From Escherichia coli (GTDB lineage: Bacteria > Pseudomonadota > Gammaproteobacteria > Enterobacterales > Enterobacteriaceae): DNA of 64,000 nucleotides. The notes under the pieces were generated by a model. That model worked only from the letters and a program-made list of their open reading frames with translations. It was not told where the DNA came from and did not search any database. A program made the position numbers and the translations under genes. The stretch lies in assembly GCF_009931435.1 (NCBI RefSeq), contig NZ_CP043414.1, one strand, 5' to 3'. Below, piece by piece: positions 3,582-32,877 of this stretch; the first letter of the stretch is position 1, and every line of letters starts with the position of its first letter.

Positions 3582-3666
3582 CGGATTTTATCCTGTTATC
3601 AGTAGGGTAGAGGTAGTTGTTATCAGTCGACGTGACGGGAAATTGCCGATGCTGAAACGGAATTAA

Positions 3667-3754: not shown

Positions 3755-3837
3755 CTGAATATTTTTCCCGCTGCTTGCGCAAGGACAATCAGCCAACGGT
3801 GCAGTACACTGCGTTGATTGCGTGTAAAGGGATGAAA

Positions 3838-4851
3838 ATGATGACGACGATGCTGGAAGTGGCGAAGCGCGCCGGGGTTTCAAAAGCGACCGTTTCCCGC
3901 GTGCTTTCAGGTAATGGCTACGTCAGCCAGGAAACTAAAGATCGCGTGTTTCAGGCGGTGGAAGAGAGCGGCTACCGCCCAAATTTGCTGGCGCGCAATC
4001 TGTCAGCGAAGAGTACCCAGACGCTGGGGCTGGTAGTGACCAACACGCTTTACCACGGCATTTATTTTAGTGAATTACTGTTTCATACCGCGAGAATGGC
4101 GGAAGAGAAAGGGCGTCAGCTGCTATTGGCAGATGGCAAACATAGCGCCGAAGAAGAACGCCAGGCGATTCAGTATCTACTGGATCTGCGCTGCGACGCC
4201 ATTATGATTTACCCGCGCTTTTTAAGCGTGGATGAGATTGATGACATCATTGATGCACACAATCAGCCGATAATGGTGCTCAATCGCCGCCTGCGCAAAA
4301 ACAGTAGCCATAGCGTCTGGTGCGATCATAAACAGACCAGCTTTAACGCCGTGGCAGAGTTGATAAACGCCGGACATCAGGAGATTGCTTTCCTTACCGG
4401 TTCGATGGATTCCCCCACCAGCATTGAACGCCTTGCCGGATATAAAGACGCGCTGGCGCAGCATGGTATTGCACTCAATGAAAAACTTATCGCTAACGGT
4501 AAATGGACGCCTGCCAGCGGGGCCGAAGGGGTAGAAACGTTGCTCGAACGTGGGGCTAAATTTAGCGCGTTAGTTGCCAGTAACGACGATATGGCGATAG
4601 GTGCGATGAAAGCGTTGCATGACCGTGGTGTAGCGGTGCCGGAGCAAGTATCGGTTATTGGATTTGATGATATCGCAATTGCCCCCTACACCGTTCCGGC
4701 GCTCTCCAGCGTAAAAATTCCGGTGACTGAGATGATTCAGGAAATAATTGGGCGGCTGATATTTATGCTCGATGGTGGTGCTTACACACCGCCGAAAACC
4801 TTCAGCGGAAAACTAATCCGCCGCGACTCACTCATTGCTCTTTCGCGATAA
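3838..4851 (+). CDS. ascG: LacI/GalR-family transcriptional repressor of the asc operon
   Basis: Track ORF 3775-4851 (TTG at 3775). K-12-like N-terminus MTTMLEVAKRAGVSKATVSRVL begins at 3838/3841; AAGGG Shine-Dalgarno 7 nt upstream of 3838. HTH plus periplasmic-binding-like fold. Confidence 0.88.
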   Translation: MMTTMLEVAKRAGVSKATVSRVLSGNGYVSQETKDRVFQAVEESGYRPNLLARNLSAKSTQTLGLVVTNTLYHGIYFSELLFHTARMAEEKGRQLLLADGKHSAEEERQAIQYLLDLRCDAIMIYPRFLSVDEIDDIIDAHNQPIMVLNRRLRKNSSHSVWCDHKQTSFNAVAELINAGHQEIAFLTGSMDSPTSIERLAGYKDALAQHGIALNEKLIANGKWTPASGAEGVETLLERGAKFSALVASNDDMAIGAMKALHDRGVAVPEQVSVIGFDDIAIAPYTVPALSSVKIPVTEMIQEIIGRLIFMLDGGAYTPPKTFSGKLIRRDSLIALSR

Positions 4852-26955: not shown

Positions 26956-28539
<1,584 letters not shown>

Positions 28540-28547
28540 CAGAAAAG

Positions 28548-28620
28548 AAAAAGGCCACTCGTGAGTGGCCAAAATTTCATCTCTGAATTCAGGGATGATG
28601 ATAACAAATGCGCGTCTTTC
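28548..28620 (-). ncRNA. micA: MicA (SraD) small regulatory RNA
   Basis: Minus strand reads GAAAGACGCGCATTTGTTATCATCATCCCTGAATTCAGAGATGAAATTTTGGCCACTCACGAGTGGCCTTTTT, the MicA sequence as I recall it, with its terminator hairpin GGCCACTCACGAGTGGCC and T-run; located between gshA and luxS. Confidence 0.85.
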
Positions 28621-28688: not shown

Positions 28689-29204
28689 ATGCCGTTGTTA
28701 GATAGCTTCACAGTCGATCATACCCGGATGGAAGCGCCTGCAGTTCGGGTGGCGAAAACAATGAACACCCCGCATGGCGACGCAATCACCGTGTTCGATC
28801 TGCGCTTCTGCGTGCCGAACAAAGAAGTGATGCCAGAAAGAGGGATCCATACCCTGGAGCACCTGTTTGCTGGTTTTATGCGTAACCATCTTAACGGTAA
28901 TGGCGTTGAGATTATCGATATCTCGCCAATGGGCTGCCGCACCGGTTTTTATATGAGTCTGATTGGTACGCCAGATGAGCAGCGTGTTGCTGATGCCTGG
29001 AAAGCGGCAATGGAAGACGTGCTGAAAGTGCAGGATCAGAATCAGATCCCGGAACTGAACGTCTACCAGTGTGGTACTTATCAGATGCATTCGTTGCAGG
29101 AAGCGCAGGATATTGCGCGTAATATCCTGGAACGTGACGTACGCATCAACAGCAACGAAGAGTTGGCGCTGCCGAAAGAAAAGTTGCAGGAATTGCACAT
29201 CTAG
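28689..29204 (+). CDS. luxS: S-ribosylhomocysteine lyase (AI-2 synthase)
   Basis: 171-aa [34 protein letters not shown]..., HxxEH metal motif (HTLEHL). Confidence 0.96.
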
Positions 29205-29217
29205 TCAATTGAAGAGG

Positions 29218-29247
29218 CCGGGCAGGTGATATCACCGCCCGGTTTTT
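29218..29247 (+). terminator. Rho-independent terminator of luxS
   Basis: ccgggcaggtgat/atcaccgcccgg hairpin followed by TTTTT, 14 nt after the luxS stop; abuts the stop codon of the convergent 370-aa ORF. Confidence 0.6.
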
Positions 29248-29248
29248 A

Positions 29249-30361
29249 TTACCTGTCAGTCACCCGATATTCCACGCTATGTGCTTCATCAGGTTGAGGA
29301 ACTTCCAGCCTTGAGGCCATCCGCATCACGACCGCTTCAGGAACGGCATACTCGCGCCTGGCATTTTGCTGCTTCCATTGCGCCCACGGTACTTCCAGAT
29401 AAACGATTTTTACTCGTGCACCGTAAGCCGTAAACAGACTGATGAGCTGGCTACGCAACTGGCGGGTAATGTTCGTTGCATTCCAGATGAACGGCTTCTT
29501 CTGGCGTAAAAAAACGCGCGCTTCTTCTTTTGCCTGTTGCACAATACGCCCGGTGGCGGTTTTGTCGTCCGGACTGGCATTGATTCGCCGCCGCATATCA
29601 TCAAGGCTGATAACGTTCACTCTCTGGCACTGTTCACTGATAAAGCGATCTTTGCCCATACCCGGTAAACCACACAGCAAAATAACCTCAAAAGATTCAG
29701 CCTCCCAGGGAACAAAATCAGGAGAACTTTGTTCATGGGTCAGGTAATGCCAGCGTGCGGAATCCGAAGCGAATGAACGCACTTTTCCCCAGCATTGTTG
29801 CTCCTGGCAAAATAGCTTGAACAGATCGATGCGTTCCAGCATTGATTGCTGATCATGACAATGGCGACCAAGCAGATCGGCACGAGCAAGCAAAGCGAGC
29901 AGACGCGTGTCGATACGCATTGCAGCCGTGAGCAGCAAACGCTCCGGTTCCGGACGTTCCAGTAACCATAGCGGTAACCCATGCAGACGCACCAGTGCAA
30001 CAATTTGCTCGCGTAGCACGAACGGTGTCGGGATATCGCGCCATAAAATTTGTCGGGCCGTCAATTCACCCCGACGAGCATGACCAGGGGACTGAATACG
30101 TCCGTTTTCCTGCACGGTAGTACTGCGCTTTTCAACGTCATGCAATAACGCCGCCGCCCATAAAATTTCCTGCTGCTGAGCGGGGAGTTGCTGAAACTCA
30201 GCCATCGCAACGAGTGCGTTCAGCACCATTTCAGTATGCACACCAACGTCGCCTTCACCATGATGCTCCGGGTCTTGCGGCGTGTTATGCATATCCTCAA
30301 CCCAGCTAAAACGCTGGCGTAGCGTCGACCAGCGTTTGTCGTCGGTAAGTTGCCAAATCAT
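29249..30361 (-). CDS. HD-domain phosphoesterase fused to P-loop NTPase (polynucleotide-kinase-like); predicted RNA/DNA end-healing enzyme
   Basis: 370-aa ORF. N-terminal HD signature: [16 protein letters not shown] (res 31-46), AALLHDVEK (res 70-78), ARADLLGR (res 159-166). C-terminal Walker A GLPGMGKD (res 231-238) and Walker B-like NVISLDD (res 249-255). Start overlaps the stop of the upstream ligase-like ORF by 4 nt. Confidence 0.65.
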
Positions 30362-31065
30362 GACTGTTCTCCATAAGCGAACTCATGGGCCATCCGCGCC
30401 CGTCGCCAGTGGCGTTTCCAGTGCTCGGTGGTTTTGACATGATTTTTGCGTACATACTTGAAGACGTTATGCGAAAAGTCAGCGACGGAAAACGCATCAC
30501 TATTCCGGCTGACAATGCCTTCCAGCGTACAGGGTTGCCCGGTTTGCGTATCCCAGGGATCGAACGCGCCGCGCGCATTGGTCAGCGCCAGAAAATCACG
30601 TTGCCAGCTTTTTTCATCATTCCCCGGCTGCGGGCCGGAGATTTCGGGAACGCAGGGGAAATCAAACAGAGCGGCGTAAAACTGCACCTCTTCCCAGCTC
30701 AGCCACATATCCTGGCAGCGAACGGCAAACAGATAAAAATCCTGCTCCAGGGCGCGATATTCAATCGAATGAACGGCATAAAGATTTTCACCAAACAACT
30801 CCAGATCGCCGAGATCGTTTTTCAGCGATTGCCAGCGTTGGCGAATTTTATAGGTCCATGCCGATTCCGTTGGCGCGGCATGGGAACGGGCAAACACGCC
30901 GAAGCGATTAAGACAGTTATTTTCGCCGTCGAGTTTTTCAGTATGTACCAACTGCGAAATTGCCTGCATATCTTGCCAGTAACTGGCGTTAATGCGGTCA
31001 TCGCTGGTGGTGCCAGGGGAGAAGGGATAATGCCAGGTTCTCCCGTATTTACGTTGGATAATCAT
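30358..31065 (-). CDS. Rnl2-like ATP-dependent RNA ligase (nucleotidyltransferase domain only)
   Basis: 235-aa ORF with candidate covalent-nucleotidyltransferase motifs in canonical order and spacing: I KLDG (K44), III LFGE (90-93), IV EGIV (182-185), V KYVRK (203-207). First gene of a 2-gene operon. Confidence 0.6.
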
Positions 31066-31291
31066 AATAATCCATTATTTTGTGTGTAATAAATGTACGC
31101 CCGCGTGGGTGCGAGTTATGGGGTTAAAAGAAAAATGTGAGTATCACCCGCGAAAGCGAGGGCGAAGAAAAAAGAGAGTTAACAACCTGAGCGAATGCTC
31201 AGAACCGATTAATGGTGAATGGAAGAGTTTGGGGCGGCGAAAAGATACACCGTTTGAGATGATAAAACAACCGTTTACAGAATGAGCAAAT

Positions 31292-31312
31292 AAAAAGGGA
31301 GCCGCAGCTCCC
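31292..31312 (-). terminator. Rho-independent terminator of emrB
   Basis: gggagc-cgca-gctccc hairpin; on the minus strand it is followed by TTTTT, about 10 nt after the emrB stop. Confidence 0.55.
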
Positions 31313-31322
31313 TTTGACAACC

Positions 31323-32861
31323 TTAGTGCGCACCGCCTCCGCCGCCACCTGCGCCAAATGGCGGTTTAGCAAACCACACCAGCCCCAGCAGGACGAGGAA
31401 TATCCCGGCTGACATCCAGAAGATCTCATTGGCGGAAATAATCAGCCCCTGATTAGTGATCTGCTGGGCAATCCAGCCTGATGCCTGTTGTTGCGTCATC
31501 CCCAGCCCTTCCAGTTGGCTGTACATCGCCTGAGCGTTCGGGTTAAACGGGTTTACCGACTCGGTTAACTGTGCGTGGTGCATCGACTCGCGGTTGGTCC
31601 ACATAGTCGTCGTAATGGACGTGCCGATAGATCCCGCCAGCGTTCGCGTAAAGTTGGAGAGACTCGATGCCGCCGCCAGTCGTTCCGGTGGCAAACCGGA
31701 CAGCGTAATGGTGGTCAGCGGCATAAAGAAGCAGGCCACCGCGAAGCCCTGGATAAACTGCGGCCAGGCCGACGCACCAAAATCCATACCCGGTTCAAAG
31801 GTATAGGCACGCCAGTAGAAGCAGACGGCATACATAATAAAGCTGAAGGTTACCAGCCGCCGCATATCCAGTTTATGCGCGAAGCGGCCGATAATCGGCG
31901 ACAGGATCACCGGAATAATCCCTACCGGCGCAGAGGCAAGCCCCGCCCAGGTTGCTGTATAGCCGTAGACTTCTTGCAATAACTGCGGCAGCAGAACAAT
32001 CGCGCCGAAGTAGAGCATATACGCGAGGCTGATACACAAGCAGCCGATGGTGAAGTTGCGCGACTTAAACAACGACAGATCGACTATAGGGTTATCGTCG
32101 GTCAGCTCCCAGACAATCAGGAAGCTGATAGCCACCACCGCCACCACGGTGAGGATGATAATTTCCTGTGATGAAAACCAGTCCAGCTCTTTACCCCGGT
32201 CGAGCATAATCTGCAGGCTGCCGATACCAATCACCAGCAGTGCCAGCCCCACGGCATCAATCCGCCGCCGTTCGGTGCGGGTTTCGCGTCCGCGCAGGGT
32301 TTGCAGTGTCATCAACACCACCGCCACGCCAATCGGCACGTTGATGAAGAATATCCAGCCCCAGTGGTAATTATCGCTGATATAACCGCCGAGGATCGGG
32401 CCGCAAATTGGCGCGACAATCACCGTCATCGACCACAACGCCAGCGCGATCGAGCGTTTGGCTGGCGGGTAGTTATTCAGCAATAGACTTTGCGAAAGCG
32501 GGATCAACGGCCCGGCGACAATTCCCTGAATCACGCGGAAGAAGATCAGCATATTCAGGCTGCTGGAGACACCACATGCCCACGATGCAATAGCGAAGGC
32601 GATGGTCGACCAGAGGAACAGCTTCACTTCCCCAACACGTTTTGCCAGCCAGCCGGTAAGCGGGATCGAGATGGCATTCGCCACCCCGAAAGAAGTGATT
32701 ACCCACGTTCCCTGGCTGAGCGATGAGCCCAGGTTTCCGGCGATAGTGGGGATCGCTACGTTAGCAATGGTGGAGTCCAGCACCTGCATGAATGTCGCCA
32801 GTGACAGCGCAATTGTCATAATGACCAGTTGCGCGCCTTCCAGCGGTTTTTGCTGTTGCAT
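31323..32861 (-). CDS. emrB: Multidrug efflux MFS transporter, permease subunit
   Basis: Track ORF 31323-32870; ATG at 32861 gives MQQQKPLEGAQLVIMTIALSLATFMQVLD..., 512 aa, 14-TM MFS. Confidence 0.93.
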   Translation of the reverse strand: MQQQKPLEGAQLVIMTIALSLATFMQVLDSTIANVAIPTIAGNLGSSLSQGTWVITSFGVANAISIPLTGWLAKRVGEVKLFLWSTIAFAIASWACGVSSSLNMLIFFRVIQGIVAGPLIPLSQSLLLNNYPPAKRSIALALWSMTVIVAPICGPILGGYISDNYHWGWIFFINVPIGVAVVLMTLQTLRGRETRTERRRIDAVGLALLVIGIGSLQIMLDRGKELDWFSSQEIIILTVVAVVAISFLIVWELTDDNPIVDLSLFKSRNFTIGCLCISLAYMLYFGAIVLLPQLLQEVYGYTATWAGLASAPVGIIPVILSPIIGRFAHKLDMRRLVTFSFIMYAVCFYWRAYTFEPGMDFGASAWPQFIQGFAVACFFMPLTTITLSGLPPERLAAASSLSNFTRTLAGSIGTSITTTMWTNRESMHHAQLTESVNPFNPNAQAMYSQLEGLGMTQQQASGWIAQQITNQGLIISANEIFWMSAGIFLVLLGLVWFAKPPFGAGGGGGGAH

Positions 32862-32877
32862 CACACGCACCTCTGGA

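Follow-up and report, generated by a model that had tools for sequence, protein, structure and literature searches.

A conserved promoter and structured 5' leader probably control the LIG-HD-Pnk RNA repair operon located between luxS and emrB in Escherichia coli

The 64,000-nucleotide stretch of Escherichia coli DNA analyzed here (contig NZ_CP043414.1, hereafter the window) carries, on the minus strand, a two-gene RNA repair operon, LIG-HD-Pnk, that is separated from the upstream emrB gene by a 257-bp spacer. The ligase gene (LIG) encodes a protein of 235 aa that matches PF09414 (E=5.9e-28). The second protein, HD-Pnk (370 aa), combines an HD domain (residues 41-139) with an AAA_33 kinase domain (residues 226-355). 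The two open reading frames (ORFs) share an ATGA overlap (overlap sequence GTCATGATT), and the pair thus shows the arrangement that defines the HD-Pnk/LIG cassette, a ligase-like ORF located upstream of, and overlapping, an ORF with HD and P-loop kinase domains. Comparison of the spacer across bacterial genera indicates that it is probably the cis-regulatory region of this operon, consisting of a promoter and a structured 5' leader maintained by selection. The features of the spacer and the operon are as follows.

31066-31322: the spacer studied, 257 bp, from the emrB stop codon to the LIG ATG
31288-31315, minus strand: emrB intrinsic terminator, hairpin AAAGGGAGC-TGCG-GCTCCCTTT (31294-31315) followed by the tract TTTTTATTT
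31265-31270, minus strand: putative -35 element, TTGTTT, inside the conserved block GGTTGTTTTATC
31242-31247, minus strand: putative -10 element, TATCTT, 17 bp downstream of the -35 element
31066-31235, minus strand: predicted 5' leader of the LIG-HD-Pnk mRNA, about 170 nt
31215-31225, minus strand: box CTTCCATTCAC (RNA CUUCCAUUCAC), near the 5' end of the leader
31186-31203, minus strand: hairpin P2, UCUGAGC-AUUC-GCUCAGG, 7-bp stem including a U-G pair, -9.6 kcal/mol
31165-31185, minus strand: U-rich tract after P2, UUGUUAACUCUCUUUUUUCUU, a possible attenuator together with P2
31145-31164, minus strand: hairpin P3, CGCCC...GGGUG, -10.5 kcal/mol
31100-31115, minus strand: predicted hairpin P4, CUCGC-ACCCAC-GCGGG
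31063-31079, minus strand: translation initiation region AAUAAUGGAUUAUU-AUG, with a weak Shine-Dalgarno (SD) sequence (GGA) and the ligase start codon
30358-31065, minus strand: LIG (RNA ligase), ATG at 31065-31063
29249-30361, minus strand: HD-Pnk (HD and AAA_33 kinase)
29249-31065, minus strand: LIG-HD-Pnk operon, from Pfam matches and ORF coordinates
31082-31285, plus strand: 67-codon ORF, judged not to be a gene

The spacer can be aligned end to end, at 70-76% identity, with its counterparts in Klebsiella spallanzanii, Phytobacter, Kosakonia, and an uncultured Enterobacteriaceae genome, and partially with those in Superficieibacter, an Enterobacter sp., and Enterobacillus. At the four-fold degenerate sites of the same genome pairs, only 44-53% of the positions are identical in LIG and 33-39% in HD-Pnk. 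Because the identity of the non-coding sequence is far above that of the neutral sites in the adjacent genes, the spacer is functional and, judged by this comparison, under purifying selection across genera. The conservation is block-wise. In addition, the predicted leader has a distinct composition: in the window, it is C-rich and G-poor (C/G = 2.1; 64% pyrimidine), and the C/G ratio falls between 1.6 and 2.3 in all genera, even those too diverged in sequence to be aligned.

The upstream boundary of the region is the emrB terminator, which has the form typical of intrinsic terminators, with a GC-rich hairpin beyond the stop codon that runs directly into a U tract. It has a 9-bp stem with 5 G-C pairs and a folding energy of -15.7 kcal/mol, was reported by the terminator scan, and is kept throughout the Enterobacteriaceae loci, where both arms of the stem have changed (AGC/GCT to ATC/GAT) in a way that preserves the pairing. 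The coordinates of the hairpin and U tract (31315-31288) agree with the distance of about 226 bp between this terminator and the ligase ATG given in an initial annotation of the region, which described it as a promoter-bearing spacer.

Around the terminator, some individual loci differ from the window. The Superficieibacter locus (L011) contains the hairpin twice, in inverted orientation (3644-3665 on the minus strand and 3776-3797 on the plus strand), about 110 bp apart and upstream of the ligase promoter. E. coli XJ6-3 (L085) carries an IS200C transposase element inserted exactly at the terminator hairpin (the equivalent of window positions ~31291-31315), which splits emrB from the ligase promoter region and leaves the promoter and leader untouched.

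The putative -35 and -10 hexamers contain no variable sites among the eight Escherichia spacers, whereas the 17-bp stretch between them is the most variable part of the region (5 of 17 positions). Across genera, TTG and TAT..T are retained in the two hexamers. The Superficieibacter homologue, TTGCAA-17-TATTAT, fits the consensus at 9 of 12 positions and was reported by the promoter scan, and the -10 homologue of the Enterobacter sp. is TATTCT. The scan produced two minus-strand matches in the window, both overlapping the ligase start codon, so that they cannot serve the ligase gene; no other conserved promoter-like site was detected upstream of the ligase ATG by the promoter scan and the alignments. 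From the position of the -10 element, transcription would start near 31235, yielding a leader of about 170 nt. Promoters of the sigma-54, sigma-32, and sigma-E types were also considered, and no convincing consensus match was found in a by-eye check. A literature search on the expression of the cassette in E. coli returned nothing, including no mapped start.

The predicted leader begins with GC-rich nucleotides, CGCCGCCCC, which are followed by the box. The box is identical in 13 of the 14 leaders of the core group, the exception being a metagenome variant (L107) with a single change, CTTCCATTAAC; it is recognizable in more distant genera and occurs exactly once in the 64-kb window. In the predicted folds, the box is single-stranded, and it is complementary to SD-like sequences. 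The hairpin downstream of the box, P2, is the best supported structural element of the leader: in an alignment of 13 sequences, 93% of the cells are paired, three pairs have changed on both sides, and the covariation score was reached by none of 500 shuffles. The P2 loop varies in sequence and in length (4-6 nt), and the hairpin is invariant within Escherichia. Part of the P2 stem in Superficieibacter is held together by G-U and U-G pairs, which are valid on the ligase strand only. The invariance of the box and the P2 stem across four genera suggests recognition by a specific partner. The P2 homologue with its U-rich tract was called terminator-like in Kosakonia (TCTGAGCAACGCGCTCAGG TTGTTTATCT) and in Superficieibacter.

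At the second stem pair of P3, Escherichia has G-U, whereas Klebsiella and Phytobacter have A-U, and Phytobacter massiliensis has a GCCC/GGGC stem with the register shifted by one position. Column counts underestimate the pairing of P3, as its loop is not equally long in all genera. In Kosakonia, P3 and its tract were called terminator-like as well, making two such sites there with P2. Pairing in P4 reaches 98.6%, and the changes seen there are C-G/U-G and U-G/U-A. The CGCCC at the 5' terminus (31231-31235) offers an alternative partner for the 3' half of P4, in a long-range helix that is 100% paired, with one both-side change (in L003); since pairing is close to complete in both helices and a single change in each is informative, the present data do not separate them. 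Overall, the conserved helices found are local hairpins, and covariation supports P2 and, weakly, P3, P4, and the long-range helix. Read on the opposite strand, the wobble pairs of P2, P3, and P4 would become A-C mismatches, and the pairing of these three hairpins thus belongs to the ligase strand.

The leader ends in an A-rich start region, AAUAAUGGAUUAU(C/U)AUG, that is nearly invariant across genera; the window sequence directly upstream of the ligase ATG is AAAATAATGGATTATT. As had been noticed from the sequence in the initial annotation, the SD sequence of the ligase gene is weak, with the best pairing to the anti-SD of 16S rRNA at -3.1 kcal/mol, versus -10.8 kcal/mol for luxS in the same window. 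In the window, the leader contains no AUG before the start region. A leader peptide on the ligase strand was considered and rejected, given that there is no AUG and that the GUG and UUG frames are, by inspection, unconserved. Masking of the SD sequence AAUGGA by the UCCAUU of the box is predicted in the Escherichia folds. However, the SD side is altered, with no matching change in the box, in three natural variants (L010/L096, L105, and L107): Phytobacter massiliensis has AACGGA, and metagenome variants have AAAGGA and AAUGAA. We therefore do not rely on this pairing.

The 5' module of the leader appears to be confined to this gene context. A nhmmer profile and the covariance model R1 of the module detected nothing outside Enterobacteriaceae and Enterobacillus; all covariance model matches lie upstream of LIG, with one in the window. 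A metagenome scan for the P2 hairpin yielded 120 stretches, of which 9 were the leader itself, 96-99% identical to sequences already in hand and in no new context, and the rest were chance palindromes. In the metagenome contigs L113, L161, L163, L148, and L127, a P2-like palindrome, GGTTCTGAGC-N-GCTCAGGTT, recurs at regular intervals of 37-47 bp; these arrays resemble tandem or CRISPR-like repeats and are unrelated to the leader. Comparison of the region with Rfam 15 gave only sub-threshold matches to the emrB terminator (STnc290, 18.9 bits against a threshold of 60; CrcZ, 13.9 against 95). A tRNA/tmRNA search of the spacer region found none, no Y-RNA-like or tRNA-like fold was found in the leader, and the repeats within the spacer are limited to the terminator and short chance matches.

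Taken together, these features make it reasonably probable, in our assessment, that the spacer is the minus-strand control region of LIG-HD-Pnk, in which a promoter and leader combine attenuation after transcription initiation with a weak translation start. Under this model, emrB transcription would end at the strong intrinsic terminator (31315-31288), and a weak sigma-70-type promoter located about 20 bp beyond it would start the operon mRNA near 31235. The untranslated leader of about 170 nt, C-rich and G-poor, with the box, P2 and its U-rich tract, P3, and P4, would then limit the operon to a low basal level once transcription is under way, through premature termination at P2 and the U tract, possibly aided by Rho acting on the C-rich RNA, and through inefficient translation initiation at the SD sequence consisting of GGA alone. 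The HD-Pnk start overlaps the ligase stop (ATGA), and HD-Pnk is accordingly predicted to be translated by coupling to the ligase. The box and P2 might provide the handle for a signal or factor that relieves the repression. Both the attenuation mechanism and the relieving signal are deduced from sequence features.

Several observations weigh against this model. In the window, TTGTTT-17-TATCTT matches the consensus at 7 of 12 positions, which is below the threshold of the promoter scan, so that the promoter was not reported, and the start near 31235 is deduced from the position of these hexamers. The tract after P2 in the window has T in only four of its first eight bases, and the terminator scan was silent on it; no conserved antiterminator competing with P2 was seen in the consensus folds. 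Furthermore, P2 shows no variation in the 14 closest sequences, its covariation rests on four distant sequences, and the invariance of the stem suggests sequence-specific recognition rather than structure alone. The covariation of P3, P4, and the long-range helix is thin, with the observed scores reached by 33/500 and 2/500 shuffles, and the masking of the SD sequence by the box is contradicted by the three uncompensated variants described above. Finally, the Enterobacteriaceae copies share one locus and one ancestry and so amount to a small independent sample.

The alternatives range from an inert spacer to regulation of a different kind. That the spacer is neutral filler derived from the cassette insertion, with nothing but a gene-proximal promoter, is hardly credible at all. 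Apart from the absence of RefSeq annotation, nothing speaks for it, and it is refuted by the 70-76% identity across genera at which synonymous sites are saturated and by the block-wise conservation; the possibility, left open in the initial annotation, that the spacer amounts to "nothing" is rejected on the same grounds. The other suggestion made there, that the opposite strand encodes a basic micro-protein or marks an antisense transcript, fares little better, and we rate it as highly improbable. The ORF does exist exactly as described (31082-31285 on the plus strand, GTG start, 67 aa, internal ATG at 31118, peptide MGLKEKCEYHPRKRGRRKKRVNNLSE...), its frame is intact in six of the eight Escherichia spacers, and there is a plus-strand promoter-like match at 31254-31283. 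However, this match, the only one on that strand, lies downstream of the ORF start and is unconserved, and an ORF of at least 67 codons arises in 6.3% of 3000 dinucleotide-preserving shuffles of the spacer, that is, within chance expectation. In L001, the closest E. coli relative, a 2-nt deletion disrupts the frame, as does a GAA to TAA stop in another E. coli (L086); the internal ATG is TTG in ST131, and Klebsiella, Phytobacter, and Kosakonia have homologous DNA in which the corresponding frame is missing, being fragmented or shifted. Among the intact copies, the 19 variable sites are distributed 8/8/3 over codon positions 1, 2, and 3, with a single synonymous change, which is the opposite of a coding signature. 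SD pairing is not usable at either start (+1.8 kcal/mol at the GTG and -3.9 kcal/mol at the ATG at 31118), the product has no Pfam match, and the wobble pairs of the hairpins favor the ligase strand. The richness of the translation in Lys, Arg, and Glu is explained by the plus strand being the purine-rich complement of the 64%-pyrimidine, C-rich leader. The micro-ORF is a by-product of the base composition of the spacer, not a gene. The other part of the initial annotation, the promoter-bearing spacer with a regulatory leader, gains support from the purifying selection across genera, the invariant hexamers, and the hairpins that are valid on the ligase strand only.

Given that the spacer is under selection, the conserved blocks could instead be DNA operators for a transcription factor encoded elsewhere, with the CTGAGC-N4-6-GCTCAG palindrome and the GGTTGTT/GGTTCT repeats as candidate sites. 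Fourteen sequences from four genera share an invariant P2 stem and flanks around a variable center, as expected of half-sites; GGTTGTT is present at the -35 element and again after the palindrome, and the Escherichia palindrome has the CTG-N10-CAG spacing of a LexA box. We nevertheless consider operators unlikely: the spacing of the arms varies (4, 5, or 6 nt), which dimeric DNA-binding proteins rarely tolerate, and in Superficieibacter the arms are complementary only through G-U and U-G pairs, which makes a palindrome of RNA and not of DNA. Moreover, no regulator gene travels with the cassette, and the compositional bias spans the whole leader. A LexA (SOS) box in particular was rejected because the N10 spacing is specific to Escherichia, with N11-N12 in other genera. 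About equally doubtful is the proposal of a separate small RNA of ~55-60 nt, extending from near 31235 to the end of the U tract after P2 and using the box as its seed, with the operon mRNA produced by read-through. This would account for the succession of a promoter, about 60 highly conserved transcribed nucleotides, and a hairpin with a U-rich tract, followed by a more variable stretch, for the terminator-like calls of the hairpin in two genera, and for the single-stranded box complementary to SD-like sequences. However, the U tract in the window is short and interrupted by G, and the module is never found away from LIG, occurring once in the window and being absent from the other clades. 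We retain the promoter with an attenuating leader as the preferred interpretation.

This interpretation bears on a widespread bacterial pair of end-healing and end-sealing enzymes. The conserved promoter and leader offer a concrete handle on when the repair operon is switched on, and reporters fused to the leader would allow a screen for the damage or toxin that induces it. For annotation, the gain is the removal of a tempting but false small-protein call.

In the window, the operon is flanked by the following genes.

26983-28539, plus strand: gshA
28549-28620, minus strand: MicA small RNA (Rfam RF00078, 83.9 bits), a known gene in its expected place between gshA and luxS
28689-29204, plus strand: luxS
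31323-32870 onward, minus strand: emrB (stop at 31323), then emrA and mprA

MicA is the only true Rfam match in the neighborhood. The 44-bp gap between the convergent luxS and HD-Pnk genes (29205-29248) is also unlike the junction of K-12-type genomes; it contains a plus-strand hairpin, GCCGGGCAGGTGATATCACCGCCCGGC, followed by TTTTTATT, on which the terminator scan made no call.

The cassette together with the spacer was detected in 998 of 5426 complete E. coli genomes (~18%), in a single copy in each, without exception on the chromosome, and invariably between luxS and emrB. The carriers include ST131, O145, and the E. coli type strain; cassette-free genomes, of the K-12 type, have a 63-bp gap between luxS and emrB with a different terminator. 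In the Enterobacteriaceae loci (L003-L012, L018), the cassette is always directly downstream of emrB, and luxS was detected downstream in 6 of these 11 loci (including Klebsiella, Superficieibacter, and the Enterobacter sp.). In the Enterobacillus locus (L013), neither emrB nor luxS was detected as a neighbor. HD-Pnk follows LIG in all 80 loci that were fetched. Searches of the spacer against plasmid and phage collections gave no match; together with its presence once per E. coli genome and always on the chromosome, this led us to reject a mobile-element origin of the spacer. A PADLOC search with both cassette proteins found no defense-system match, and a search of PDB sequences with the ligase returned only spurious hemocyanin matches. 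The annotation of E. coli DA61218 (L086) lists the ligase gene as a pseudogene with a frameshift, whereas the leader and HD-Pnk are intact; the cassette is decaying in some E. coli lineages.

Beyond Enterobacteriaceae, the upstream regions of the 80 LIG loci fall into clade-specific families. Many contain an invariant ATGTAAT, with an AUG-UAA start-stop, located 81-113 nt upstream of the LIG start (183-192 nt in L064, L067, and L048). It is present in 16 of the 17 loci of Xenorhabdus and Providencia and also in Proteus, in all 14 loci of Chitinophagaceae and Sphingobacteriaceae (L021, L026, L031, L032, L042, L043, L051, L054, L055, L060, L064, L067, L072, and L082), in all three loci of Dysgonomonas and Prevotella, and in three further loci; the other start-stop loci listed are L022-L053, L066, L079; L050, L058, L081; and L052, L059, L073, L048. 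In the L021-L082 list, the element lies ~88-93 nt upstream of LIG (at 4001), except in L064 and L067. The leaders of Chitinophagaceae and Sphingobacteriaceae, aligned as 12 start-stop loci plus two singleton Bacteroidota loci, share a fold that is 86% paired, with nine pairs changed on both sides and a score reached by none of 500 shuffles. In its outer helix, GCCAUGU, around the start-stop, pairs with ACAUGGC, which includes the LIG start codon, with C-G to U-G to U-A changes.

In 13 of the 80 loci, rtcB (TIGR03073) and prfH (TIGR03072) immediately precede LIG-HD-Pnk, and the four genes form a cluster (Serratia L014-L017 and L019; Bacteroides/Parabacteroides L065, L068-L070, L074, L075, L077, and L078). 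The rtcB-prfH pair is a ribosome rescue and repair module (PMC9304027), so that these clusters link the cassette to that module. The leader of the four-gene operon in Bacteroides contains a conserved 4-codon mini-ORF, AUG UUG GAA CUA UAA or AUG UCA GAG AAA UAA, and the Pragia and Limnobaculum leaders contain AUGAAAUAA. In the Budviciaceae loci L025, L056, L062, and L076, the leader opens about 200 nt upstream of LIG with a -10 element and GCGCGCGCC-UUC..UCACC..UUAA, loosely resembling the Enterobacteriaceae CGCCGCCCC..CUUCCAUUCACC..UUAA, and has AUGAAAUAA or AUGUAA near the start codon; these leaders were not detected by the covariance model of the Enterobacteriaceae 5' module. An Rfam scan of representative LIG leaders from the other clades yielded no match, and the leader in the window contains neither AUGUAA nor a mini-ORF of the kinds found in these clades.

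Given that the same genes in other phyla have distinct leaders that are equally conserved, control of expression seems to be built into the repair system and maintained by selection. A more speculative extension, to which we assign a low probability, is that LIG-HD-Pnk operons across Proteobacteria and Bacteroidota are under undescribed structured leaders that report the state of the translation machinery, the leader in the window being a derived variant. Under this scenario, the start-stop or mini-ORF of 2-4 codons would form part of a helix occluding the ligase start codon, and ribosomes unable to finish at the stop, for example, because of ribotoxin-damaged rRNA or tRNA, would open the helix and turn repair on. 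The Enterobacteriaceae leader would have lost the start-stop and would use the box and P2 for the same purpose. The fusion of the cassette to rtcB-prfH in Serratia and Bacteroides points in this direction.

Among the known regulatory systems, leader attenuators offer the closest general parallel. These are either of the intrinsic-terminator type, as in trp and pyrBI, or Rho-dependent in long C-rich leaders, as in mgtA, corA, and rho. The leader in the window similarly combines a long 5' untranslated region, hairpins with a U-rich tract, and an excess of C over G, as in rut regions; it differs in that the ligase strand encodes no leader peptide and an alternation between terminator and antiterminator could not be demonstrated, and we do not claim membership in this class. 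The rtcBA RNA repair operon is regulated by RtcR and sigma-54, and the Salmonella rsr-yrlBA-rtcBA locus embeds non-coding RNAs. With these systems, the window shares an RNA repair operon that is presumably kept silent until needed and a conserved non-coding RNA linked to repair genes. It differs in that no activator gene is adjacent, no TGGCAC-N5-TTGC sigma-54 promoter was seen by eye, and there is no Y-RNA-like or tRNA-like fold.

The cassette itself was, according to the excerpted text of PMC6097658, which summarizes the work of Munir & Shuman (2017), first described in Runella slithyformis, where the ligase self-adenylylates; the natural substrate and trigger of the cassette are given as unknown. 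The gene pair given in that text is the same as in the window, with the ligase ORF upstream of, and overlapping, the HD/P-loop kinase ORF; the LIG protein is 61-69% identical to the Bacteroidota homologues that were fetched. The excerpted text covers the enzymes and mentions no promoter or leader. AUG-UAA start-stops have been described in 5' leaders of Arabidopsis, in NIP5;1 (PMC11915504), and bacterial start-stops were detected by retapamulin profiling (bioRxiv 10.1101/520783). Judging by sequence, the likeness is to the cassette leaders of Xenorhabdus, Providencia, Proteus, and Bacteroidota, not to the Enterobacteriaceae-type leader in the window. The latter appears to be an undescribed instance of a familiar kind of element, a promoter followed by a regulatory 5' leader.

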